A model generated the notes under the pieces. That model ran no database searches. It had not been told where the DNA came from and was given only the letters and a program-made list of their open reading frames with translations. The position numbers were made by a program, and so were the translations under genes. Shown here piece by piece: positions 1 to 46,079 of a DNA stretch of 64,000 bases (positions are counted from its first letter, which is position 1; every line of letters starts with the position of its first letter). Source of the DNA: Eledone cirrhosa (taxonomy: Eukaryota); assembly GCA_964016885.1 (NCBI GenBank), contig OZ024746.1, positions 53,692,001 to 53,756,000 of the forward strand, written 5' to 3'.

Positions 1-2882
1 ACAGCCTCAAACAGTTAATCGACCGATCTGACCTGGCCGATAGATATCGATTAGATTTTCCGACTGTGCCACTGTGGACGTGGACTAATCGCAGCGGAAC
101 ATCTAGATCGTACCTAGATAGGGTTCTAGTTAGAAATAAGGATAGGGACATGTTAAGCTGTCCACAAATGTTCATGGTTGCCTATTCAGACCTGCATGGC
201 CAACCTTGATAGAACCCATAGACAAGGACCCGGCTACTGGAAGCTGAACTTGTCGCTACCGACAAACAAATCCTACAGTAGACGGATTAGCACGTTAGTT
301 AAACAGCACTTGACAGGGGCCATTGTCAACAACAGATGGTGGTACTCTCTCAAGAGGGCAGTTAGATTAGACTCGTTAGTTTTTAGTAAAGAATTAGCGT
401 TAGATAGAAATAGAACTGAGAAGGAACTGGTAGATAAAGTAGAAGAGGCATTTAGAAGTGGCAACGTAGCCAGGGTGCTAGCAACGAGAACGGCCTTGGA
501 CCAGTTCTTCGACGCAAAGCACGAGGGCTGCGTTGTCAGAAGCAAAATAAGTGCTCTGGGAAACGAGTGAGCCAAAGCTGTTAGCTGGGACCGAGTGACG
601 GAGGCAAAAAGTGGCAACAGTCCACGATTCGGTCTTTGAAGGACCAAAACGGACGCGTGATACGTGAGCCGAAGCAGATGTGTGCGGCCTTTCAGCGGCA
701 CTTTGCTCAACTGTTCGGGCGGGGCGGCGCGCCAGGAGGGGCTATGGATTTCGGTCCATACCTCGACGGCCTACCGCGACTCTCGGACAGCGAGGCAAAG
801 TTCTGCGAAAAGCCGATTTCAGCCGCTGAGATAGGGGACGCGCTGAGCCAATGCGGCAAACGAAAATCTCCAGGTCTCGACGGTCCACCCTATGAATTTT
901 ACGTAGCAATGCCGGACTTATTCTCCGGTCTCCTGGAAGCGGTCTACTGCAACTGGCAACAGAACGGGAGAATTCCCATTTCTGTAACCGGGGGCGTGGT
1001 CACACTAGTCAGGAAGGACGAGAATAAGGGGGATGACATAGGCAACTTCCGGCCCATAACTCTGCTAAACACAGAGTTACAGATTTTGGCCAAGGTGTTG
1101 GCAAAGAGGCTGGCACTTGTCGTCGAGAACCTGGTGGGAGAAGCGCAGACATGCGCAATCCCGACCAGGTCCATACACGACAACGTCCACCTCATGCGAT
1201 ACATCATAGAGAGGGTAGGGTGTAAACCCGGCTTCGGTGGGGCCCTGATCAACTTGGATCAGTCTAAGGCTTTCGATAGGGTTGACCATCGTTAGCTGGA
1301 TGCGCTGCTCGAGGCGGCAGGCTTCGGACCCGTGTTCAGGGTCTGGATTGTTGCAATGCACAACAGCAACATCTGCTCAAAGATCAACGTGAACGGCTAC
1401 CTCTCGGAGCCGTTCCATATTACGCGATCCATTCGACAGGGATGCCCTCTCTCCTCCCTTCTGTACGTACTGACTCTAGATCCACTACTGCGGAAGTTGG
1501 AGCTATTGCAGGGCATCCCGCTGGAACCGGGAATGCGGTCGAGCGCCTCGCAAATCGAGGAAGTCGGCACCTTACTGAAGGAATACGAGAGTTTCACAGG
1601 AGCGAAGCTGAACCGGGACAAGTCCATCGGTTTGCAACTCGGATCGTGGAGAGGCAAACCAATGCTTTCCGATGGCGTCGTCGGACGCTGGACGGAAGGA
1701 CCCGTAAAGCTGCTCGGGGTCTGGTTTGGTCCGGACCTCCAGGTGGAGAAGAACTGGAACGAAGTGTTTGCACTCACCCAGAAGTGGGTCGAGTGCAGAC
1801 TATCCTTGAAAGGTCGAGCGGAGGTGGCGAACACTTTTATAGCGTCCGCCATCTACTACCGCTTGACCGTCGTGCCTTGTCCAGCCAAAACGCTCTCCAA
1901 AATGGAGCGCGCGCTCTTCAAATTCCTTTGGAAGACGCGGGCTCCTTTGGTGAGAAGATCCATCTGCTGCCAACACCCTTCTAACGGAGGGCTGGGGATG
2001 GCGTGGTTGACGATGCGCAAACACGCGCTCAGGCTGCAGCATCTCTACGTATTTCTCACCGGACAACCGGTGTGGGCCCCATTCGTAAGGCGAGCCTTCC
2101 CACGACTCGTCTCGCTGACCGAGCTGCAGTCCTGGGTCAAGCAAAGACCGAGGAAAATGGGCGACTGGCACATCTAATGTGCTCAGGCGCTCACAGCCCT
2201 CTGGCAGGCGGACCCGGCGATCAGTGGAGACTCGACTTCGTCATTCTATAGAGGGTTGATCCGCAGCAAGTGCGACGACGCGCTCGGTGAAACTCTAGGC
2301 GTAGAGGAAGATGAACTGGCCAGTCTGTTCGGTAGGACCTTCCGCCCGGGACCGATGGACAACTTCCAAAAGTCCCTGGCCTGGCAGTGCTACCGAGGAG
2401 CTCTACCAGTTCGAGACAATCTCTACAGACATGGGCGCCCGGGCAGGGACCCTGCAAAAAAGATCTGTCCGAGGTGCGTGCGTAACGAAGAAACCGTCGC
2501 GCATGCATTCATACACTGCCCGGGCGTTACTGACCTCTGGGGCTATGTAGAACGACTATTGTCGCGGGTGGGACCAATGCAGTTGACCACCGAGTCCATT
2601 GTCATGATCAAACCCCCACCCGCCTTCAAAAACGAAGGAGAGGCGGTTTTCCTTTGTGTGATAGCTATGGCGAAAGAGGTTGTATGGTGGACAAGGTTGA
2701 AAGGGCTGAGGTCAGACACCTTTCTCTCCGGCCAACAACTGATTCTTTTTTTCAAATACCACTTTGGAAGAAGAATCAGGATGGAGAGAGAGGTGCTGTA
2801 CCCCAGCAAGTTTTATGAAAGGTGGGTGAAAGTGGCGAGAATGGCCCGAATGAATGGGCCTTCTCTCTATATCAGACTGTAG
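1..2882 (+). pseudogene. Copy A ORF2 (APE endonuclease-reverse transcriptase), disrupted
   Basis: Stops at 568-570, 1293-1295 and 2175-2177; the AYADDVTVMV catalytic segment present in copies B and C is deleted near 1537. Confidence 0.9.
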
Positions 2883-3120
2883 GTTGAGGAAAAGGAGGAG
2901 GAGAGGAAAGGAGTACAAACTCTTCGTACTCCTGGAGATGAGGGTTTCACATTTTTTCGGGGGTATGTGTTACCCATATGAACTGTCTCCCCCTATTGGG
3001 GAAAATCGACTAATTTTTTAAATTGCATTTGTGATAACATTTTACACGTTTTTATTGTATGTAAACTTCCCCCTTTGTATTTGTCCCCTTCTTTTGTGCC
3101 CCTGTGGCTAATAAAGAAAC
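1..3120 (+). mobile_element. Tx1/L1-clade non-LTR retrotransposon, copy A (5' part outside window), defective
   Basis: ORF2 fragments with the end of the APE domain (SYLDR), GPGYWKLN, KSPGLDG, NFRPITLLN, LDQSKAFDRV, SIRQGCPLS and a C-terminal CPRC...H...C; 3' UTR ends AATAAAGAAAC followed by ATATCTATCT. Confidence 0.93.
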
Positions 3121-3442
3121 ATATCTATCTCTCTTTCTGCTTGACGCGTGGAACATCGCCGGTAAGCTTTTTTGTTAATTTCTATGCAAAAAACCAAACT
3201 AATTGTTTGAAAAAACATAACACTTTGTAGATTAACCCCAAGCTGAATTGTCAGCTGGGCGGTAATCCCATTTTTCGCCCCTGTAGGGGCAAAATTTTAT
3301 TTTAAAAATTTGTTTTAAAATATCATATTTTACAAACTAAATAACTTGACCAACACAAGAACGCCGGAGAACGTTAATAGAGAAAAGTGAGAGGACGTCG
3401 CCATAGATACAAGTGTCAACAAAGAGAAAAATATATTAACAC

Positions 3443-5164
3443 TTGAAAATTTTAAAATTTCTACCGTCGAAGCGGAGAAAAATAACAATAACACAGGAAA
3501 ACACAGGAATTAAACCCATTAACATACATACACATGAAAAAGACATAAACAACTCTACAGATACATATACACATAATGTTTCACCTCGACAAGGAACTGA
3601 GATTTCCAACAACGATAACAACAACAGCAACACCACACAAAAAAAGAAAATGTCTTTCGCTGAAACAGTGAACAAAAAACAAGATTTTATAAATCTTGAT
3701 ATCTCTAACGCAAGAGATAAGCTCCAGCAAGGGAGAAAATTCGTAACTTTCGAAGAAAGAGGTGGGTTTAGAATTAACTCAGCCCTTAAAATAAAGGAAG
3801 AAACAATCCGCAGATCAGTCACTTTTAGGACTGTGTCAAATTCCACAAGAAAGCCGACATTTGTTCACCAAGCAGATATAGAAGATACTTTCAAGGAAAT
3901 TCTAGCAAATGTCGATTTTCTCCAGCGAGGAAAACAGTACGGAAGTGTTTCCGTACTGTTTAAAAGCGAGGCACTCGCCCCAAAAAACTCTGTGACACCA
4001 ATGGTGTCAAAAGCATACACCTTTTTCCCTACATACATGGGAAAAAGGACACAAAAACTAAAACTAAAAAACATACCTCCAAACATTAACATATGGTGGA
4101 TCTTGGCTGGCTTCGTAGAGCCAGAAACTGATATGATACTTTCAATACGAAAATCTATTCGACAAAGGTGGGCGGGCACAGATTTGGAGATTCTGTTGCA
4201 AATGAAACCGGAGAGAATCTCCAAAATACCCGAAAGAGTCGTTATTGATAATAACAACAGAATAAACATTTCGGTAGAAGGACGAATATTTCATTGCTTT
4301 CGCTGTGGTAGCACAGCTCACCTAAAAGCCTCTTGTCCACAAACACACAACAACATCATAAAAAAAACGCTATTACCAACACCAACACCAAAACAACCAC
4401 CACCATCACCACAAGTACAACGACAGACGAAACGAGCAACCACACCAAAACAAACAGACACTCAACCAACAACAACAGAAAAAACAGAGACAACACCCCT
4501 GAAGAACACAGCCCCACTCCATCCCACTCCATCAAACACTACCACAAACACACATACCGAAACACCACCACCGCACAACATACCCTTACCCCACACACCT
4601 GACGATGATTATTCATCGGCGGATGAAGCTGCTTCTTCTTTAAGTGAAGAAGACGGAGAACCGCGGAAATCTAAAAAACAAAAAAAGAGACACCACAAAA
4701 CCCCCAAACTCCAATCACCAACACCAACACACAACCACAGACACAAACAACAACACAAACAACACCACAGTCAAACATCCCCCTATCAGCAAAACCAGCA
4801 CCAACACCACCCCAAACACAAGCACCCACCATAAAAAGAAAACTCCCGGACGAACAACAAACTAAAACAACACAACAAAAACACAAACAACAAGAGTTTG
4901 ATGGAGGTCATCTCCCAAAACCCCAAGGTGGAGACGGAGGGAAAAACTTTCGTCAAGGCAGAATCGTCTCCACACCTTAAACTTATAAGGGTTTCTATGG
5001 AAACCTATAAAGACCTAAAAAATAAATGTTCACAGGACGTGGGCAACCCCTGCCACAAACCCATCAACCGCGTCCTGTTAAAATGTTTCCCCACCCCACC
5101 CAACACCCCATCCAGCACCCAAATGGAGATTGAACAACCCGATCTCCAGGAAACGAAAAGGTAA
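3443..5164 (+). pseudogene. Copy B ORF1 (gag-like, CCHC zinc knuckle, Pro/Thr-rich region)
   Basis: CFRCGSTAHLKASC = CX2CX4HX4C; homologous to copy C ORF1 (PTYMGKRTQ/PSYMGKRTQ, QMKPERI, INISVEGR, KPINRVLLK); interrupted near 4832; start codon uncertain. Confidence 0.85.
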
Positions 5165-5205
5165 GTGCACCTTTCGTCCTTTTTCTCCAACTTTTCTTCA
5201 CCAAA

Positions 5206-8200: not shown

Positions 8201-8631
8201 AGGGATCCTTCCAAGAGGACGTGTCCAAGATGGGCGCAGGACATTGAAACAGTCCTGCACGCAATTGTACACTGCCCGGGCGTAACTGACCTGTGGAACT
8301 ATGCAGAACAACTGCTGTCGCGTATGGGACAAATCCAGTTGACTGCCGAGTAAGGATCAAACCGCCAGCCTCTTTCAAAAACGAAAGAGAGGCGGTTTTC
8401 CTCTGTACGGTGGCTATGGTGAAAGAAGTTATATGGTGGACGAGGTTGAGAAGACTGAGAACAGATGCCTTTCTCTCCGGACAACAATTGATTCCCTTCT
8501 TTAAGTATCACTTTAGAAGGAGAATCAGGGTGGAGAGAGAGGCACTGCACCCCAGTAAATTTACTGAAAGGTGGGTGAATGAAGCAAAAATGGCCCGAGT
8601 GATTGGGCCTTCTCTGTTTATAAGCCTGTAG
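5206..8631 (+). pseudogene. Copy B ORF2 (APE-RT-CCHC), disrupted
   Basis: ATG at 5206 (MASLRVGTVNVRG) with two early stops; VYAP, GDWN, SDH and AYADD motifs; frameshift near 7455 and further stops. Confidence 0.9.
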
Positions 8632-8964
8632 GTAGAGGAAGAGAGCAAAAGGAAGAAAGGAGCACTTGCACAACACGCTCCTGGAGTTGAGGGTTGTTCT
8701 ATCGACAGGGTATTAAACAACCCATTTGTAGCCCCCCCCCCCCCCTATTGGGGATTTCGATTGTTGTAATTGTTTGTTTTTTATATTTTTTACCTGACTG
8801 TATGTATAATCCCCTGCATGTCTTTGTTTTGTCCGCTTTTCTTGTGCGCCCTTGTGGCTAATAAATAAATATATCTATCTATCTATCTCTCTATTTATTA
8901 TTTTGTTCTTCTTCAAGGGAATTCAAAATAGCTATACTGTACTCTTTTATGGGGGAAGATTTAC

Positions 8965-12887: not shown

Positions 12888-13174
12888 CTTGACTCTGTAT
12901 ACCGTTTATCTTTCATCGAAAGTGATTTTTCATTACATCTCTTCTTTCCATGATATCCGGAATACATTGAGTTCTTCATACGGATTGGACACTACCGTAA
13001 ACTCTTGGTAGATTTATCTACATAATTTTGCTCCTATTTTCACGGAAATATTCGTATTTTTGTACTGTATGTGTGTATTAATTTTATATTTATGTATATA
13101 CATATATATGTATGATTTTATAAACCCATATACATTTAGTTGAGCTCTTTCAATTGTCCATCATCCATATCACA

Positions 13175-15616
13175 ATGGAAAAACAATATTTGGGAACCTC
13201 TTTAAAAAACATACCAATACCTTCTAAGGATGACTTCTTACTCCTTATGATTCAAAAAACTAATAATTTTATCAGAAGGGTTAGATGGAGAGCCTACCAC
13301 TTCGATAGAAAATCTAAACAAGCAGATCGGAAATATATGTATGATTTCAATACTTACAAGAATCCACCACACAACTTTTTACTTGAAGACTTCGAGAAAG
13401 ACCTTTTTAATTTAATTAAACACCTCAAATTTAAAAAGTATAAATCCGTCTTTCAAAAGGACCTTGATTCTACCCTATTGGACCTAAAAAAGTCTAAAAA
13501 AATCCATGTCCACTCGGACAAAACTGGTAACTTGTATCATATGGATATTGAACATTATAATGAGTTCATATATAAAGAACTCAGAAAAAATTATAAAAAA
13601 TCTAATAATGCGTCACTCACCAACATCAACAACAAAACACACAACATAGTAAAAAAACTAAACATTGAAGATAGAACTGAACCTTTGGCATTGAAAAGAC
13701 CACACTTCAACCTGAAGGATCATAAATCAAACTTTAACTCAAATCCTTCTATTAGACTTATATGTCCCTCCAAATCAGATATTGGAATAATTAGCAAAAA
13801 AATTTTGGATAGAGTCATCCCACAAATAAGAAAACACGTTATTTTACCACTCTGGGAAAACACCTCCCAGGTAATTAACTGGTTTAAAAATATTAGATGT
13901 AAATCTTCTGCTTCATTTCTACAATTTGATATAGATAATTACTATTCTTCTATATCACCTATACTCCTGAACAAAGCATTGATATTTGCTAAAAATAGAT
14001 CTAACTTAACTTTGGATGACATTAATATTATTACACATGCTAGACTAACACTTATTGAATTTCAGAATGAATACTGGACCAGAAACACATATAGTAATCT
14101 ATTTGATATTACTATGGGTTCAAGCGATTCCGCCCAAATTACTGATCTTGTGGGCCTCTTTCTCCTTTTCAACATAAATGCCTCCTTTCCCCACCTCAAA
14201 GGTGGTTTATATCGTGATGACTGTCTTCTTCTTTCTAACAACCTTAGCCTTTCAGAAATTGAAAAAAACAAAAAACATATTAGAACTTTCCTTAAAGACT
14301 ATTATAATCTTAATATTACTTTTGAAAAAACAAGTAAAGTAGTAAATTTCCTAGATATAACTTTAGATTTAGCTACGGGTATCTACCAACCTTACCATAA
14401 ACCAAACCAAAACTTACATTACATACACTCACAATCTAATCACCCTAAATCTATCCTTAAAAACCTTGCATATAATATATCACTTAGAATTTCTAACCTT
14501 TCTTCTAACCAAGATGTATTTGATAAAAATGCGACCTTCTATAACGAAGCTCTAGATAGAAGTGGCCACAAAAATAGATTAGAATATATACCTTCTACTA
14601 AAAATACTGAAAGCATACAACCTAATATTACCAACAAACACCAAATGAAAAGTACACACCTAAATGCCACCCACACTATACCCCAAAATACCAAATCTTC
14701 TAATATAAAGTATAGTAACTCTCAAAAAACTACTCATCATACAACTCTAATAAATATTAATAATAAAACTCCTAATAAAAAGGATAAAACACCTAAATCT
14801 ACAAATATAACTAAAAATGGTTGTGGTGAGATCATTAACATTAATCCTCCTAGTAAAAATCACGATACAACCTATAAAAATAATAAAAATAATAAACAAC
14901 ATAGAAACCGTAATAGACGGATTACTTGGTATAATGCTCCATTTAATTTACAAATTAAGGATAATATTGCTAAAAAATTTTTTTATATCCTAGAGAAAAA
15001 CTTCCCGCCAAACCACAAATACCATCAAATCTTAAATAGGTCTACAGTTAAATTCTCATACTCTACAACAAATAACATAAAACAAAATATAAGTGCCTAT
15101 AATGCATATAAATGTAAGAAAACCATAAGTATACCACCAGTACATCAAATTAACCATAATATCTCCTCAAATACAGAATTAACGAAAGGTTGTAACTGTA
15201 GAAACAAAGCAAACTGCCCATTAAAAGGGAATTGTCTTGTTAACAACATAGTCTATAAATGTAATGTTAAAACTAAAGATTCTATTTGCTCATATATAGG
15301 AGCTACCTCTAACAATTTTAAGACAAGGTTTAATACCCACAAGCATAGTTTTAAAAATGCCGCACTGGCTAATACAACATCTCTAGCAGAAAAAATCAAT
15401 AGTTATAAAAATAAGAATATAGAATATGTTTTGACCTGGAGTGTGCTCAAAAGAGCCACCCCTTATCAAAATAATAGAAATGAATGTAGATTATGTTCCC
15501 AAGAACTATTTGAAATAATGAAATCTAAGGATATCCTATTAAATAAACGACAGGAATTAATTATATCGTGTAATCATAAACTAAAAAAAACATTTAAATA
15601 TTATAAACCTAATTAA
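13175..15616 (+). CDS. PLE1 reverse transcriptase + C-terminal GIY-YIG endonuclease (813 aa; probably Hydra-type PLE clade)
   Basis: SLKNIP N-terminus, SDKTGN, FLQFDIDNYYSSI, ITMGS, LYRDD, FLDI, YHKP, SNHP, CNCRNKANCPLKGNC linker, IVY...YIG, CRLC, LNKR; uninterrupted; clade label from memory. Confidence 0.92.
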   Translation: MEKQYLGTSLKNIPIPSKDDFLLLMIQKTNNFIRRVRWRAYHFDRKSKQADRKYMYDFNTYKNPPHNFLLEDFEKDLFNLIKHLKFKKYKSVFQKDLDSTLLDLKKSKKIHVHSDKTGNLYHMDIEHYNEFIYKELRKNYKKSNNASLTNINNKTHNIVKKLNIEDRTEPLALKRPHFNLKDHKSNFNSNPSIRLICPSKSDIGIISKKILDRVIPQIRKHVILPLWENTSQVINWFKNIRCKSSASFLQFDIDNYYSSISPILLNKALIFAKNRSNLTLDDINIITHARLTLIEFQNEYWTRNTYSNLFDITMGSSDSAQITDLVGLFLLFNINASFPHLKGGLYRDDCLLLSNNLSLSEIEKNKKHIRTFLKDYYNLNITFEKTSKVVNFLDITLDLATGIYQPYHKPNQNLHYIHSQSNHPKSILKNLAYNISLRISNLSSNQDVFDKNATFYNEALDRSGHKNRLEYIPSTKNTESIQPNITNKHQMKSTHLNATHTIPQNTKSSNIKYSNSQKTTHHTTLININNKTPNKKDKTPKSTNITKNGCGEIININPPSKNHDTTYKNNKNNKQHRNRNRRITWYNAPFNLQIKDNIAKKFFYILEKNFPPNHKYHQILNRSTVKFSYSTTNNIKQNISAYNAYKCKKTISIPPVHQINHNISSNTELTKGCNCRNKANCPLKGNCLVNNIVYKCNVKTKDSICSYIGATSNNFKTRFNTHKHSFKNAALANTTSLAEKINSYKNKNIEYVLTWSVLKRATPYQNNRNECRLCSQELFEIMKSKDILLNKRQELIISCNHKLKKTFKYYKPN

Positions 15617-27167: not shown

Positions 27168-27369
27168 TTCCTTTGTCAGTGTTGAACAAACGAGCAACGA
27201 TGGTTGGTAGACACTACGGCTTAATACGGGATGTTTGTTTACAAATACACCGAGCATTATAATAAATGTTCGGTGAATCCATACGTACATATATATATGT
27301 GTGCATGTATGTATATATATATACATACGACTTTACGTATGTATACATATATGTATGTACGTGTACATA

Positions 27370-27467
<98 letters not shown>

Positions 27468-27472
27468 TATGT

Positions 27473-27547
<75 letters not shown>

Positions 27548-27606
27548 GCGGCGATGAATTAGTTTTGCGAGGTTTTTTATATGAGGTTTTTGCGAGGTTT
27601 TTTATA

Positions 27607-29433
27607 GCTAGCAACTACAGGATCTCCTACTTCCTCTCAATGGTTATACGCCCCATAATCAAGATGTCCCCAGATGTATGTGAAAGTACAGAGGACCTCC
27701 TCAGCAGAATCAGTGAGTGCAACAAAAACAGGAGCCTATCCAACTGCATAATAGGCAGCATGGATGTGGTGTCACTGTACCCATCCATTAACATTGATTT
27801 TGCTGTGAAAAGATGTGTGGAGATGATCATTGAGAGTGAGGTGGAGTTCTGCGACGTCGACACAGACGAACTGGGCCTCCTACTTAGACTTACCTCCGAC
27901 ACTGACTACCTAGACAGCCATGACCTTAGATGTTTCTGCCCTAGTAGACCTATAAGAGGTAGACCCCCCACCATAACCTCAATGGCTAAAAAGACTCCCA
28001 TAGGAAGGTGGATTGGGTGGACCAAAGCTATACGGACCCCCCAAAACACTGATCAGGTAAGAAAAATGGTCGCACATGCAATAGGGGCTAGTATCAAAAC
28101 TACCCTAAAGGGCCACATATTTAAGTTCAATGAGAAAATCTACACCCAAAATGAGGGAGCAGCCATCGGCGTCAGCATAGCTGGCGATGTTGCCAACCTT
28201 TTCATGGTATGGTGGGAAAGGAGACTTAAAGATCTCCTTAATGAAAGCTCCATAGACCTCATCATGTACTCTCGTTATGTAGACGATATCAATATAGTTA
28301 TAAGAACACCCCCACTAGAGAGCACTAACAAGTTTGATTTAGAACGTAGCACGATGGAAAGCATCCAGCAGATAGCTAATTCCATACACCAGAGTATAAC
28401 TGTAACTATAGACTTCCCTTCCAAACACCCTAACAATAGACTACCTGTATTAGACACAGAACTCTGGATTAACACTATAGACGAGAGAGCCCAAATTCTC
28501 CACTCACACTATGCTAAACCCATGGCCTCCAAATACCTGATACTCAAAAACTCAGCAATGTCCAGTAGTGCTAAGTTTAATATTCTGATCGCAGATTTGG
28601 TACGAGTGATGAAGAATGTGTCCAGCATGTGCGACCCAACAGAAATGGAAGGACACATCCAACACTTCATCAACCGCATGCAGTTCTCTGGCTACAACCA
28701 AAGAGACAGAGTCAGAGTATACGAAGGAGCCATGGAAAAGTATAAGACCCTCATAGAACTGGACATGAAAGGAATTTGCCCACTATACAGGAGCAAATCA
28801 TGGAATAGCTTAGATAGGGCTAGACATAAGATAGGGAAGGCCACATCATGGTACGACAACCAGAGATATCAGAGTGTCATGTTTGTGGACGCCACCCCAG
28901 GAGGGAAATTAGCTAACCAGTGTAGAAAGGCCCTGAGAAAGACCCACTTAAAAATAAAGGTGGTAGAAAAGCCAGGAACCACCATAAAATCCCTGATCAG
29001 CAAAACCTACCCTTTTAAGAAAACCCACTGTACCAATAGGAAATGTATCATATGTAAGGTGAACCCCCGGATAAACTGTAAAACTAGAAACGTAGTCTAT
29101 AGCATAAGATGTACAGAGGGTACTTGTAGAAACACGACAACAACATACATAGGTGAGACAGCTCGTAGCATAGGTGAAAGGATAGACCAACACTGGGGGG
29201 AACTAAAAGGACGAAAAAACGGGTCAGTACTATACGAACATGCTAGACAACATCATGACGGTAACATAGACAACATAGAAATTAGAATAATATCTAAACA
29301 TAGGAATGACCCAGCAGATAGGCAAATCAGAGAGGCCAGTGAAATAGAAATTAGAAGACCAAAGCTAAACAGAAAGAATGAGTGGAACAACAACAACACC
29401 CAAACAAACAACACTGACCTAAGAGAAGTATAA
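27607..29433 (+). CDS. PLE2 RT + GIY-YIG endonuclease, open frame but 5'-truncated
   Basis: [49 protein letters not shown] linker, VVYSIRC...C...YIGETAR...H...H, LNRKNEW. Confidence 0.88.
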
Positions 29434-40120: not shown

Positions 40121-40481
40121 CATGTGTCTATAGGTCTATATGTGTATATATGTGTATATGTATATAGGTGAATATATACATGTGCATATATGTGTACATA
40201 TACGTGTGTATATGTCTGTCTATATGTATATATATATATTATATCTAGCTGTCGTCTGTTCTACAGCGTAGATGTAATTCACTTCGCGCAGAAGTTTTGT
40301 TCAAATTTATTGCGGAAATTTTGTATGTTCAATTTTAATTTTGATACTATTGTGTAGCTTGACCCCCCGTCTGAACTGTCAGGCGGTGGGTCAGCTCATC
40401 TTTACCCCTCCTAGGGGTGAAAAACCTGTTTTTTTAAATTTTGTGGCAAAAAAAAAAAAAAATTTCAATCGTCTGACAGAA

Positions 40482-42400
40482 ATGTTAAACGAAGCTAACG
40501 AAAATAGTGGTGGGGGGACAGCGGTAAGAGTTGTAAGCTCGCACGCTTTAGTCCCCCCTTCCTTCCCAACTAACTTCATAGAGAAGGAAGGAAAAAATAA
40601 AATAAAAACAGACGAATCTGCGGAGAAAAATGACGAAAACACAAATCTGGACATGGATTCCAACAACGAAAAAAAAAAAAATTTTGAAAAATTGCATGAC
40701 AATATTAATACCACAAACAAAGACACAACAAACACAAAAATAACATTTGAAAACAACATCATAACAGAAAGCAAAGCAGACGACAAAGTCAACACCAACA
40801 AGATTTCATTTGCACAAACAACAAAGAAATCTTTGACATATATACCTGAAAATATTTTAGATGTGGCACAAAGAATCACAGACGCCAAACAATACATAAG
40901 TGAAGGAGAGAATGGTATTTTATCGGTAAAAATGCCTCAAGAACTCACCAAAGACATTGAAAGTCGAACGGTCGTGTTCCGCACCATCAACAACACTTCA
41001 AAAACACCTGAACAGCCAACTCAAGCAGAAATCAAAACAGTACTCACAGAAGTACTTAATGAAACCACTTTCATAAGAAAAGACAGACTGTATGGAAGCC
41101 TAGCGATTATTATGAAGAACGAATCGGCGGCAAAAAAATGTGCTTTGTCACCGATTCGTTCGAAAAATTTTACCTTTTATCCATCTTATATGGGTAAAAG
41201 AACTCAACGCATATGGCTGGATGCAATGATGCCAGATGTGGACTACTGCTGGCTCATAGCTGGCTTCATCGATCCAGTGAATGACAACGTGATTTCCATT
41301 GGGAAAACCACAGGCAATGCGTTCAGTGGAACAGGTATAGAGCTTGTAGTGCAAATGAAGCCTGAACGCATCGCCCAAATACCCGACAGAATCCTATTAG
41401 AGGGCCACGGGTATATAAACATTAGCGTGGAGGGGAGAAGACCGTCCTGTCATATCTGTGCAGGCAGAGGGCACCTGAAGGCCGCTTGTCCCCAACTCAA
41501 CAAAAAGAAAACCCTGCTACCAACACCAGCTCCACCACCACCACCACCACCACAACAGATAAACAAACAACAAAACTCAGTCCCACCCAACCCGTCCCTC
41601 AGTAAAACTACACCACCACCACAACACAAACAGTCACAACACATTACCCCAAAACAAAATACAGGCCCACCCAACCCCTCACTCAATAAAACAACACAAC
41701 CACCGCATCCACAACACACAACACAGTCTAACATAGTGACATCCATCTCCCCCACAAAGAAAACCAACACGGAAACATTACCAGCAAACATACCTCTTCC
41801 CTCCAACACTGAAGATAACCCAACGAATTCGGAGGAAGAAACGGAGTCCTTCAGACAGATTAAAAGGAAAAAAAGAAAACATGTGCAAAACACACAAGGC
41901 CAAACAACCCCCACCCAAATGTCAACACAATCCAACAAAACAGAAAACACCCCTCCAGCAACAAACAAAACCAAACCTGCCCTCCCCTCTTCGAAACACT
42001 CACACCATCCGAAAAAAAGACATTACACTATACTTACATCAACAGAAACAATAATAAATTAAATGAACTCATAAACAATAATCCTTCGGTACAAACCGAA
42101 GGTGTAAACTTTGTTTCTTCAGAAAACTACCCACATTTAAAATTAATAAAGATCCCAATGAACCTCTACCAAAAACTAAAAAAGGATTTTAAGGAGGACG
42201 TAGGACCACCCTCTGTCAAACCCATAAACCGTGTCCTACTAAAAAGCTTTCCCCCTCCCCTTCCCCTCCCCAACACAACTCCAAACACCCCAACCCCACC
42301 ACACACTGACGACCCCACACCACCACAAGACACCCCTTCACCCAACACCCCCGACCCCATGGAAGTCGTGCGACCCGAATCCCGGGAAGCAGAAAGGTAG
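40482..42400 (+). pseudogene. Copy C ORF1 (CCHC zinc knuckle), one frameshift near 42050
   Basis: CHICAGRGHLKAAC; first ATG at 40482; C-terminal block 42158-42400 homologous to copy B. Confidence 0.87.
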
Positions 42401-42433
42401 GTCTCTACACTCTCCTTTGGCTCTGCCGCCCAC

Positions 42434-45400
42434 ATGGATGTGTTAAGAGTAGGATGTTTGAATGCACGTGGCCAGGGCTCAACTTGGAAGCAAGCAAAGC
42501 TTCTAAATGACCTCAGGTCATGTGGTATAAATGTAATGGTTATCTGTGAGACTCGGATCAGCGTCGTGCGGCAGCTAGCCCCTACCTTCGATGACTCTGA
42601 GGTGCATGCATCTCTCTGTCAACCTGGAGGTGGGGGTGGGGTTGTCGTACTGCTGCAAAAACACCTGGGTCTTGCCGTACAGGTTGTTCACTCGGACCCG
42701 GAGGGTCGTTTGTTGGTGCTAGACGTTGGCAGTAGTGAAGGTGCGGCCTTGAGACTGGTCGCCGTCTACTCGCCTTTCGGAGCTGAACAGCCCGACTTCT
42801 TCCAGCGTTTGGAGACTTTTCTGGGAACGTCGCGTTCCCTGCTTCTAGCGGGGGATTGGAATGACATCCTAGATGCACGTTGGGACTATGCAGGAGCATG
42901 TCCTAATAGAGGGAGGTGTAACAGCCTCAAGGGGTTACTTGACCGTTTTAACTTGGTCGATAGATATCGACTAGATTTTCCAACTGTGCCTACCTGGACT
43001 TGGAGAAACCACAGTGGTCAATCTAGATCGTACTTAGATAGATTCTTAATTAGAAGTAAGGATAGGGACATATTAAGCTGCCCAGAAATGCGCACGGTTG
43101 GCTATACGGATCACAAATTAGTGACCTGCGTAGTCAATCTCGAGAAAACACATAAACAGGGTCCCGGTTACTGGAAACTTAATTTGTCTTTACCGGCAAA
43201 AGAGACTTACAGAAACCGGATTAGCAGATTAGTTAAGGAGATGTTGACGGGTGCAATCGTCAACAACCGATGGTGGGCATCTCTCAAAAGAGAGATTAGA
43301 ACAGAATCAATAAGTTATTGCAAGATGTTAGCTGCCGATAGGAATAGAAACGAGAAAGAATTAACAGGTAAATTAGAAGAGGCAATCAAGAGCGAAGATG
43401 TGGCCAGAGTGCTGGCATCGAGGACGGCCTTGAACCAGTTTTTCGATGCAAAGCACGAAGGCTGCGTCATTCGAAGTAAAATACGTGCTCTAGGTAATGA
43501 GGGAGCCAAAGCCGTTGGCTGGGCCCGCGTGACAGAAGCTAAGAGTGGAAATCGATCCACCATCCGGTCGTTGCAAGACGAGGATGGACGGGTGATCCGG
43601 AAGCCTAAGCAGATGTGCGAGGCCTTTCAAAGGCACTTTGCCCGATTATTCGGGGGAGGCGAGGGTCCGGGCGGGGACATGGATTTCAGTTCATACCTCG
43701 ACGGCCTGCCGCGTCTCTCGAGCGAAGAGGCAGATTCCTGTGAGGGTCCAATCTCGGCTGATGAGATCGGGGATGCGCTGAGCCAATGCAGCAGACGCAA
43801 ATCTCCAGGTCTCGATGGTATACCTTACGAACTTTATTTAGCAATGCCGGTCTTCTTCTCCGAACTCCTCGAAGTGGTCTACTGCAATTGGCAGCAGAAC
43901 GGGAGAATTCCTTGCCAAGGGCGTAGTCTCGCTGGTGAGGAAGGACGAGAACAAGGGGGATAGTATAAATAATTTTCGGCCCATAACCCTGCTAAACACA
44001 GAGTTAAAGATTTTGGCCAAGGTGTTAGCAAAGAGGTTGGCGCTTGTCGTGGGTAGCCTGGTGGGAGATGCGCAGACATGTACTATCCCATCCAGGTCCA
44101 TTCACGATAACCTTCACCTCATGCGATACATCATAGAGAGGGTTGGCAACAAACCCGGCTTCGGTGGGGCCCTGATCAACTTGGATCAGTCTAAGGCCTT
44201 CGATAGGGTCGACCATGGTTACCTGGATGCGGTGCTAGCGGCGGCTGGGTTCGGTCCTGTTTTCAGAGGCTGGATCACTGCCTTACATAGCAACCACATC
44301 TGTTCTAGGATCAAGGTGAACGGCTACCTTTCGAAGCCGTTGGAAATCACACGATCCATTCGACAGGGGTGCCCTCTCTCCTCCCTTCTGTACGTATTGA
44401 CTCTCGAGCCTTTACTGAGGAAGTTAGAATTGTTGCAGGGTATCCCCCTGGAACCAGGATTGAGCAAAGCGGTGTCGGCCTACGCCGATGACGTAACAGT
44501 AATGGTATCGACCGACTCGGAAATCGAGGCGATCGGTACCTTACTGGAGGATTACGAAAGGTTGTCAGGAGCGAAACTGAACCGGGAAAAATCCATCGGG
44601 CTGCAACTCGGAACGTGGAGAGGCAGACCGATGCCTCCCGACGGTGTCGTCGGACACTGGACGGAGGGCCCGGTTAAGTTGCTTGGGGTCTGGTTTGGAC
44701 CGGACCTCCAGGTGGAAAAGAACTGGGACGAGGTTACGAACAAGGTGTTTGCACTAACCCAGAAATGGGCCAAGTGTAAGCTGTCCCTAAAAGGCCGGGC
44801 GGAGGTGGCGAACATTTACATAGCGTCCGTCACTTACTACCGCCTGACTGTCGTGCCTTGCCCTAAGGAAACACTCACCACCATGGAACGCATGCTCTTC
44901 CAATTTCTTTGGAAGAAGCGCCCTCCTATGGTGAGAAGATCCATCTGCTGCCAACAACCTTCGAAAGGAGGGCTGGGGATGCCGTGGTTGATGATGCGTA
45001 GGCACGCATTAAGGCTACGGCACCTACTGGTATTTCTCACTGGTCAACCGGTGTGGGCTCCGTTCGTGAAACGAGCCTTTCCGAGACTCGTCTCGCTCAC
45101 CGAGCTGCAATCCTGGGTCAAGCAAAGATCCGGAAAACTGGGAGACTGGCACACTGAGTGTGCTCAGGCGCTCAGGGCTCTCTGGCAAGCGGGCCAGGCC
45201 ATCGGTGGAGAATCCACCTCATCATTCTATAGAGGGCTGGTGGCTAGCAGGGGCGATGACACCCTTGGAGAGTCGCTGGACATGGAAGAGGACGAACTGG
45301 CCAGCCTGTTCGGTAGGACTTTCGGCCCGGGACCAATGGACAACTTCCAAAAGTCACTAGCCTGGCAGTGTTACCGGGGGGCTCTACCCGTTCGAGAGAG

Positions 45401-45863
45401 GCTCTACAGACACGGGCGCCCGGGCAGGGATCCCTCAAAAAAGATTTGCCCTAGATGCGTGCGTCACGAAGAAACCGTTGCGCACGCATTGGTGCAATGT
45501 CCGGGCGTGGCTGATCTGTGGGGCTACGCCGAACGACTGCTGTCGCGGGTGACGCCGATTCAATTGACCACCGAGTCCGTGATGACAATCAAACCGCCTC
45601 CCCTCTTCACAAAGGAAGCAAAGGCGGTTTTTCTGTGCGTAATAGCCATGTTGAAAGAGGTTGTTTGGTGGACACGATTGAAAGGTCAGAGGTCAGGCAA
45701 CTTCCTCTCTGGCCATAGTCTGGTCTACTTCTTCCGATATCACTTCGGAAGAAGGATAAGAATGGAGAGAGAGGTGCTTGACCACAGGCAGTTTTATGAA
45801 AGGTGGGTGATAGTGGCGAGAATGGCTCGTGTAAATGGGCCTTCTCTGTATACCATCCTGTAG
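42434..45863 (+). pseudogene. Copy C ORF2 (APE-RT-CCHC), single frameshift near 43912
   Basis: LNARG, CET, GDWN, SYLDR, TDH, QGCPLS, AYADD, CPRCVRHEETVAHALVQC. Confidence 0.93.
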
Positions 45864-46079
45864 GTAAAGAAGTGAAGGAGAGGGGAGCACCTTCTCCATG
45901 TGCTCCCCGGGCAAAGGATTACACACTTTTTCGGGGGTGTGTGCAACCCCATCACGTCCCCTCCCTTTTGAGGTTATTTTCGATTATTTTCATTTTATAC
46001 CCTTTTTACTCGATTGTATGTAAACTCCCCCTTTGTATTTGTCCCTTCTTTTTATGCCTTTATGGTAAATAAAGAAATA

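Follow-up and report, generated by a model that had tools for sequence, protein, structure and literature searches.

The analysed stretch, hereafter called the window, comprises 64,000 nucleotides (nt) of the forward strand of Eledone cirrhosa contig OZ024746.1 (GenBank assembly GCA_964016885.1, positions 53,692,001 to 53,756,000). It contains copy C, a Tx1-type long interspersed nuclear element (LINE) with two open reading frames (ORFs), of which ORF1 ends in a 5' splice-site motif. LINEs are usually treated as intronless bicistronic RNAs, in which splice sites are a liability. A sequence-only reading of the window took this motif for one end of a stop-to-stop intron formed by the whole of ORF2, and described the same architecture in a second element, copy B. 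The donor at the ORF1 end is real; the nature of its partner is the subject of the analysis below. The relevant features are as follows, with a slash in splice-site motifs marking the actual or candidate splice border:

40219..46077, plus strand: copy C, a Tx1-type LINE of nearly full length; decayed by two frameshifts, member of a young family
40482..42400, plus strand: ORF1 of copy C, from the candidate first ATG; CX2CX4HX4C knuckle, ending in EAER before the stop (from translations and the gap list)
42394..42402, plus strand: 5' splice-site motif AAG/GTAGGT, GT at 42397-42398; overlaps the ORF1 stop codon (TAG, 42398-42400)
42401..42433, plus strand: pyrimidine-rich ORF1-ORF2 spacer, its end forming the context of the ORF2 start; predicted to supply the 5' arm of a long-range duplex
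42434..45863, plus strand: ORF2 of copy C; apurinic/apyrimidinic (AP)-type endonuclease, reverse transcriptase and C-terminal zinc motif (zf-RVT); the proposed intron runs from 42397 to 45863
45840..45863, plus strand: candidate 3' splice site; pyrimidine-rich, coding for PSLYTIL and the stop, AG at 45862-45863, rank 1 of about 250 AGs in the C family by a crude score
45860..45895, plus strand: purine-rich start of the 3' untranslated region (3'UTR); 3' arm of the predicted spacer duplex, holding G/GT and TAA
45882..45908, plus strand: local 3'UTR hairpin predicted by folding; its 5' arm overlaps the long-range duplex
46068..46073, plus strand: AATAAA polyadenylation signal closing the element; GAAA and a (TA)n/(ATCT)n microsatellite come next
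5158..5166, plus strand: donor AAG/GTAAGT of copy B, the comparison copy
8630..8635, plus strand: ORF2 end AG/GTAG of copy B; the A at 8634 is private, the family reading GTTG

The splice donor at the ORF1 end

Copy C reads GGAAGCAGAAAG/GTAGGT at the end of ORF1, with the GT at 42397-42398 and the terminal EAER closed by the TAG at 42398-42400, exactly as the sequence-only reading had it. The same donor letters are common to 30 of 30 near-identical C-family copies. For a wider comparison, the lineage set comprised 80 loci from the first 100 listed of the 5,999 endonuclease-motif matches in the genome, together with 20 loci from more distant families. The sampled loci resolve into 12 lineages that share ORF2 nucleotide identities of 68-95% and are related as (K,(D,J),(B,((A1,A2),(H,((C,G),((E,F),I)))))). 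Copies B and C have a common ancestor in this tree and are not, as had been claimed, independent witnesses. Among the 80 loci, 70 carried the donor motif and another differed from it by a single change, at position +5; in the remaining nine, this site held other sequence.

The motif G/GTRRGT is kept at the ORF1 end in all 12 lineages, and the donor hexamer occurs in only three family states: GTAAGT, GTGAGT, and GTAGGT. As a null, just 25 of 123 conserved four-fold codons were invariant over the same lineages. The reading phase of the donor does not persist, contrary to the first reading. Among copies with an intact ORF1 it is phase 1 in A1 and D, phase 2 in C, F, H, and I, and phase 0 in G, where ORF1 continues for 13 codons past the donor. 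Since the donor is kept whatever the frame and the position of the stop, neither coding nor termination context explains it. Genome-wide, 5,793 ORF1 ends carry the donor motif, as compared to 3 for the control. The donor is the best U1 match of the element, ties counted, in 23 of 27 copies with approximately 260-410 GTs each; these scores are based on a U1-complementary consensus. Selection on the donor is supported by these data.

Use of such a donor was observed in one sequencing run. Contigs of the sequencing runs were compared with the ORF1 end of an F-family copy, L145. In run X4, a unitig of depth 62 stops at the last base before the donor GT and then forks into an unspliced branch (depth 52) and another branch that has at least 255 loose letters and a tabulated depth of about 18. 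These letters are single-copy in the genome and correspond to a host exon located behind a branch-like CTAAT and TTAACAG. The joined exon spans 67 nt, up to a GT. It has a weak match to Pfam RRP36 (E 4.5e-4, below the cut-off), and the next exon has a clear one (E 6e-12). An F-family donor lies 2,187 nt upstream of the RRP36 exon on the same strand; its last 30 letters are identical to those of L145, and it is the only copy of this end in the surrounding 203 kb. This F copy is truncated early in ORF2, without a cognate 3'UTR. The sole other Tx1 3' end between the donor and the exon reads AAG instead of TAG. The reading frame is maintained across the join. Run X4 was taken as RNA from its own data, namely the GT-AG join and one variant with a depth of 25 in run X1 vs 1,084 in X4. 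We conclude that a homologous F-family donor splices to a canonical host AG in this likely RNA run. The two sides of the join in this LINE/host chimeric transcript of the rRNA-biogenesis gene RRP36 were located at L198:1461-1527 (minus strand) and L199 (G000:C14:40238880 and 40241067). A simple motif search over 160 kb did not recover an exon of RRP36 farther upstream; the F copy may lie within an intron or itself provide the first exon.

Copy C itself is crossed unspliced in both places: at its candidate acceptor by an X4 contig and at its donor by an X5 contig. No contig joining a donor to the 3'UTR of its own element was present among the 15 of 152 joints listed or among the loose ends of X4 and X5, noting that contigs show presence and not absence.

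The ORF2 end and the predicted spacer/3'UTR duplex

ORF2 of copy C ends in CCATCCTGTAG at 45863 and is followed by GTAAAG. The acceptor letters are common to all five C-family rows with a 3' end. Joining the donor to this site would give AG + G TAA and hence the same EAER terminus, so this part of the sequence-only reading proved accurate. Other parts did not hold. The swap of stop codons between copies B and C disappears at the family level, because the TAG/GTAGA of copy B is private and 100 of 100 listed B-family ends (among 1,851 matches) read TAG/GTTGA. The downstream stop, claimed to persist, is present in eight of the 12 lineages and missing from A2, B, E, and I; in the B family, splicing would add 27 codons.

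The sequence YTRTAG terminates ORF2 in all 12 lineages, an invariance matched by 15 of 47 comparable two-fold codons. Excess synonymous conservation was absent from the candidate acceptor: the divergence of the last 15 ORF2 codons was 0.30 vs 0.35 overall, and 31% of the compared windows were as low. The pyrimidine tract of the candidate acceptor is also coding. By a crude pyrimidine score, the ORF2-end AG ranks 19-21 in D and 9 in J; the base following it is T in D and A in J. An acceptor at the ORF2 end appears doubtful on these grounds, and the stop-to-stop intron is not established. The earlier inference of selection rather than chance is supported for the donor, which is kept in 12 lineages and three phases; it is not established for the stop-to-stop intron, whose last 15 codons are at background.

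Genomic retrocopies of a spliced RNA were also looked for. A junction probe for the C family revealed no spliced copies across the genome. The genome search for an ORF1 end followed by letters other than G returned one match, L031, which is an unspliced point mutant. A many-family junction pattern, covering families A-C and E-I, gave six matches (L172-L177), none of them Tx1-like as judged by the matched letters and by the lack of any endonuclease or C-terminal tblastn row. In total, no spliced retrocopies for the ORF2 intron were detected vs 5,793 unspliced ORF1 ends. For a separate intron candidate in the 5'UTR of families E and F, 717 unspliced copies and again no spliced one were counted; the retrocopy test is thus left without a positive control.

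This 5'UTR candidate is a GT-AG stretch of 63-70 nt with a branch-like motif and TTTTGTAG, present in B (window positions ~3160-3230), E, and F (L143, L145, L162, and L169). In other families, GTGAGT or GTAAGT is found close to the 5' end. In family A and a relative (L103, L111, L115, L139, and L150), the spacer ends in the acceptor-like TTTTAACTTTTCAG just before the ORF2 start context. This sequence could act as the acceptor for an upstream donor, yielding an ORF2-only RNA; other families have no AG at this place.

The spacer and the first 36 nt of the 3'UTR are predicted to form a duplex of -18.6 to -36.8 kcal/mol across the lineages. In 11 of the 12 lineages it is better than shuffled sequences (at most 3 of 200 shuffles as good). 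For the C-family copy L159, the energy is -30.7 kcal/mol vs a shuffle mean of -20.9 kcal/mol, with 3 of 200 shuffles as low, and copy C in the window has the same energy. Cognate spacer/3'UTR pairs had a mean of -29.7 kcal/mol vs -24.8 kcal/mol for non-cognate pairs. In exact permutation tests on three sets of eight lineages with one copy each, 55, 29, and 10 of 40,320 arrangements were as good (p ~0.001), as compared to 8,068 and 11,936 of 40,320 for two neighbouring control segments. As far as sequence can tell, spacer/3'UTR complementarity is thereby shown to covary across lineages and to be cognate-specific.

The predicted duplex also offers another account of the ORF2 end. The ORF2-end G/GT is predicted to pair with ACC or CACC just before the ORF2 start in nine of 11 lineages; it is unpaired in D and J, the two lineages without the +1 G. 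Thus, the ORF2-end G/GT may be conserved because it base-pairs with the ORF1-ORF2 spacer, rather than as part of an acceptor. The sequence-only reading had itself allowed that AGGTA might be kept for another demonstrable reason, and on the acceptor side spacer pairing provides one.

Models for the donor and the duplex

We tentatively prefer, with somewhat less than even confidence, the explanation that the element combines a U1-binding donor with an RNA clamp around ORF2, and that its full-length RNA is normally unspliced. According to this model, the U1 small nuclear ribonucleoprotein would bind the ORF1-end donor during transcription and, together with a second donor-like motif in the 5'UTR, would guard the A-rich ORF1 from premature polyadenylation. 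The 3'UTR, once transcribed, would pair with the spacer and clamp ORF2 into a loop in vivo. The clamp would hide the element's own ORF2-end AG/GT and the ORF2 start context, thus keeping the RNA whole. Copies devoid of their own 3'UTR, such as that beside the RRP36 exon, would splice to the next host exon instead. Excision of the whole ORF2 may be a minor or conditional product of which none was seen. Hexamers of the type A(A/T)TAAA occur within ~725 nt upstream of the donor in 12 of 12 lineages, or 26 of 27 copies; ORF2 has few of them. The second donor-like motif in the 5'UTR and the dense hexamers in ORF1, with few in ORF2, fit protection against premature 3' ends.

Several points weigh against this explanation. 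The duplex is a computed prediction. With the local hairpin competing, it covers donor positions +3..+8 in just five of 11 lineages; it is weak in H, where 55 of 200 shuffles are as good; and in five of 12 lineages another segment of the element pairs equally well or better. The upstream AATAAA hexamers may simply reflect A-rich composition. The RNA evidence consists of one junction in one run, the kind of which is not on record. The ORF1 side of this junction is about 30 letters, just under the 31-letter rule, and was deduced by depth arithmetic. The junction belongs to an F-family copy and not to copy C, and it demonstrates the splicing ability of the donor, not a role for the element. Two properties of the ORF2 end are also unfavourable: by the crude pyrimidine score, its AG ranks 1-2 among ~260 AGs in nine of 12 lineages and 22 of 27 copies, and a stop follows within three codons of the spliced frame in eight of 12 lineages (not in A2, B, E, and I). 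Finally, cis preference of ORF2p could account for zero retrocopies even if splicing were common.

If correct, the presence of a splice donor across a whole active LINE superfamily, together with a covarying clamp, would point to a previously undescribed control of RNA completion, export, or ORF1:ORF2 dosage. In addition, the at least 5,793 donor-bearing copies across the genome can capture host exons, as observed at the in-frame RRP36 exon.

The same two properties of the ORF2 end speak for the alternative that ORF2 in its entirety is a spliceosomal intron under regulation. Its removal would yield an ORF1-only mRNA with a normal 3'UTR and poly(A) signal, comparable to the shGAG RNA of copia, in a ratio set by the duplex. 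The spliced RNA would be devoid of ORF2 and the spacer and hence would not be retrotransposed. This alternative also agrees with a splicing-competent donor always located at most 13 codons from the ORF1 stop, and with a single shift of the 3'UTR stop from phase 1 to phase 2 on the branch leading to H, C, G, E, F, and I, in which donors are mostly of phase 2. However, synonymous conservation at the acceptor does not exceed background and the invariance of its TAG lies within the null (15 of 47). The acceptor is poor in D and J, phase and stop are mismatched in A2, B, E, and I, and the genome holds no spliced retrocopies vs 5,793 unspliced ends. Moreover, the AG/GT is accounted for by pairing, and an excess of ORF1p is already obtainable by translation of the bicistronic LINE RNA, a known way of producing it. 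We regard this alternative as the main competitor of the preferred explanation, possible but less likely.

A related proposal, to which we give comparably low credence, is a two-state switch. With the clamp closed, the RNA would remain whole and serve for ORF2 re-initiation and retrotransposition; with the clamp open, the 3.5-kb ORF2 would be spliced out. If true, ORF1-only mRNA lacking the spacer would be excluded from reverse transcription, and a genomic/subgenomic division of labour like that of retroviruses and copia elements would exist in an element without long terminal repeats (LTRs).

It is improbable, in our estimate, that the conserved unit is the duplex alone, with a role in re-initiation at ORF2 or in letting ORF2p recognise full-length RNA; the donor-like motif would belong to this structure, and its splicing to host exons would be a side effect. 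The covarying duplex does set the ORF2 start beside the ORF2 stop, and the GCAC arm of the 3'UTR is a possible pairing partner for donor positions +4..+8. Unusual initiation is hinted at by family G, whose copies with an intact ORF2 carry ATA at the site of the ORF2 ATG. Yet -1 G, +1 G, +2 T, +5 G, and +6 T do not vary between family states even though compensatory change would be possible, all donor hexamers found are U1-compatible, and the predicted duplex leaves donor positions -1..+2 largely unpaired. The ATA, which overlaps the ORF1 TAG, was found at the ORF2 ATG site in 13 of 13 family-G copies; L110, L114, and L134 have it along with an intact ORF2 frame. This suggests AUG-independent re-initiation, a process known from human L1.

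Far less probable is a mini-intron of 39-53 nt, running from the donor to an AG at the ORF2 start and fusing ORF1 and ORF2 in frame. An AG at a conserved Arg codon near the ORF2 start is in frame for the phase-2 families, and one K-family genomic copy, L220 (L220:1500-1560), is devoid of exactly the 48-nt GT..AG stretch. Such an RNA retains ORF2 and should leave many retrocopies, but just five matches were found, four of which are deletions with ends off the splice sites. The fifth, L220, has a 3-nt microhomology and would yield a stop instead of a fusion, being ambiguous between spliced retrocopy and deletion. The fusion is also out of frame in G, and at the first AG in A1 and D.

The explanation of the donor motif as a translation-termination context or a chance resemblance is very unlikely and largely refuted: a stop codon does lie inside the motif in phase-2 families, but the motif is kept with the stop elsewhere (phase 1 in A1, D, J, and K; phase 0 plus 13 codons in G), and the donor is used in run X4.

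Element family and known systems

Copy C shares 95.5% identity over 5,905 nt with the C-family copy L159. The C family is young: 40 scored copies among 1,173 candidates are 99-100% identical. ORF1 of copy C has a 1-nt frameshift near 41983 and a CCHC zinc knuckle, CHICAGRGHLKAAC, which is also present in intact ORF1s of A1, C, D, F, G, H, and I; the ORF1 part at 40506-42059 has no Pfam match. ORF2, with a frameshift near 43914, matches PF03372, PF00078, and PF13966. Its reverse transcriptase scores 208 bits (36% identity) with the Xenopus TX1 protein and 108 bits with human L1 ORF2p. Arm variants of the local 3'UTR hairpin are present in other families. Judging by similarity, not by a tree, the element belongs to the Tx1-type, microsatellite-flanked LINEs.

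The ORF2-end motif has 12,305 matches across the 3.0-Gb genome. Related copies are often found in mixed tandem arrays with a spacing of ~5.8 kb and flanking (ATCT)n/(TA)n repeats. Most lineages finish with AATAAA-GAAA-(ATCT)n/(TA)n and begin after the same repeats, as expected of a target-sequence preference; family H has a different end flank, CCACTCTATATATAC. Head-to-tail arrays of full-length elements, ~5.8 kb apart, occur at G000:C1:4.22-4.26 Mb, at 22.19-22.21 Mb, and elsewhere. Some arrays are single-family and others mix C, E, A, and F, with microsatellite between the elements. One locus, L098, has an F-type ORF1 end and spacer and an E-type 3' end, and is apparently an inter-family recombinant. 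Within the window, copy A (positions 1-3120), a 5'-cut Tx1 element of another family with the ORF2 end TAG/GTTGAG, lies directly upstream of copy B. Two further long ORFs were seen on the plus strand: one of 830 codons (13124-15616) with no Pfam match, and one of 718 codons (27277-29433) with a weak RVT_1 match below the cut-off.

Microsatellite-targeting LINEs of the Tx1 clade include Kibi, Koshi, and the crocodilian Tx1 (PMC4494074). They resemble the elements studied here in having two ORFs with an AP endonuclease, reverse transcriptase, and C-terminal zinc motif, and in copies that begin and end in microsatellite and form tandem arrays. Their flanks are (TC)n/(TTC)n, in contrast to the (ATCT)n/(TA)n found here. 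The main text of a repeat survey of O. vulgaris (PMC13282606) lists L1-Tx1 families and does not contain 'splic' or 'intron'. No published donor at a LINE ORF1 end and no spacer/3'UTR duplex was found in the literature, most subscription papers and Repbase being outside the scope of this search.

Drosophila TART is reportedly a non-LTR element with mapped splice and polyadenylation sites, where splicing concerns antisense or UTR transcripts and not the removal of ORF2. The nearest LINE case is that of human L1 spliced integrated retrotransposed elements (SpIREs), which reveal functional LINE splice donors and show that spliced RNAs can leave retrocopies (PMC5860796). These donors belong to the 5'UTR, the main one being retained through its overlap with a RUNX3 site. 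Unlike in the case of SpIREs (PMC5860796), spliced retrocopies were found here neither of the long intron nor of the candidate in the 5'UTR.

LTR retrotransposons of plants offer the closest working analogy. In Arabidopsis EVD (Ty1/Copia), a conserved U1-type donor at the gag end splices the Gag-only shGAG RNA and also suppresses premature 3'-end formation of the full-length RNA (PMC5580714). Multiple RNA pools are described for BARE (PMC3735527). EVD and BARE share with the elements examined here a U1-type donor near the end of the gene for a structural protein. The major donor of human immunodeficiency virus type 1 likewise protects against premature 3'-end formation. EVD is a single-ORF LTR element whose short intron is coupled to early termination, whereas the Eledone element is a non-LTR element with a candidate intron of 3.5 kb that takes up all of ORF2, a candidate acceptor of its own, and a predicted long-range clamp.

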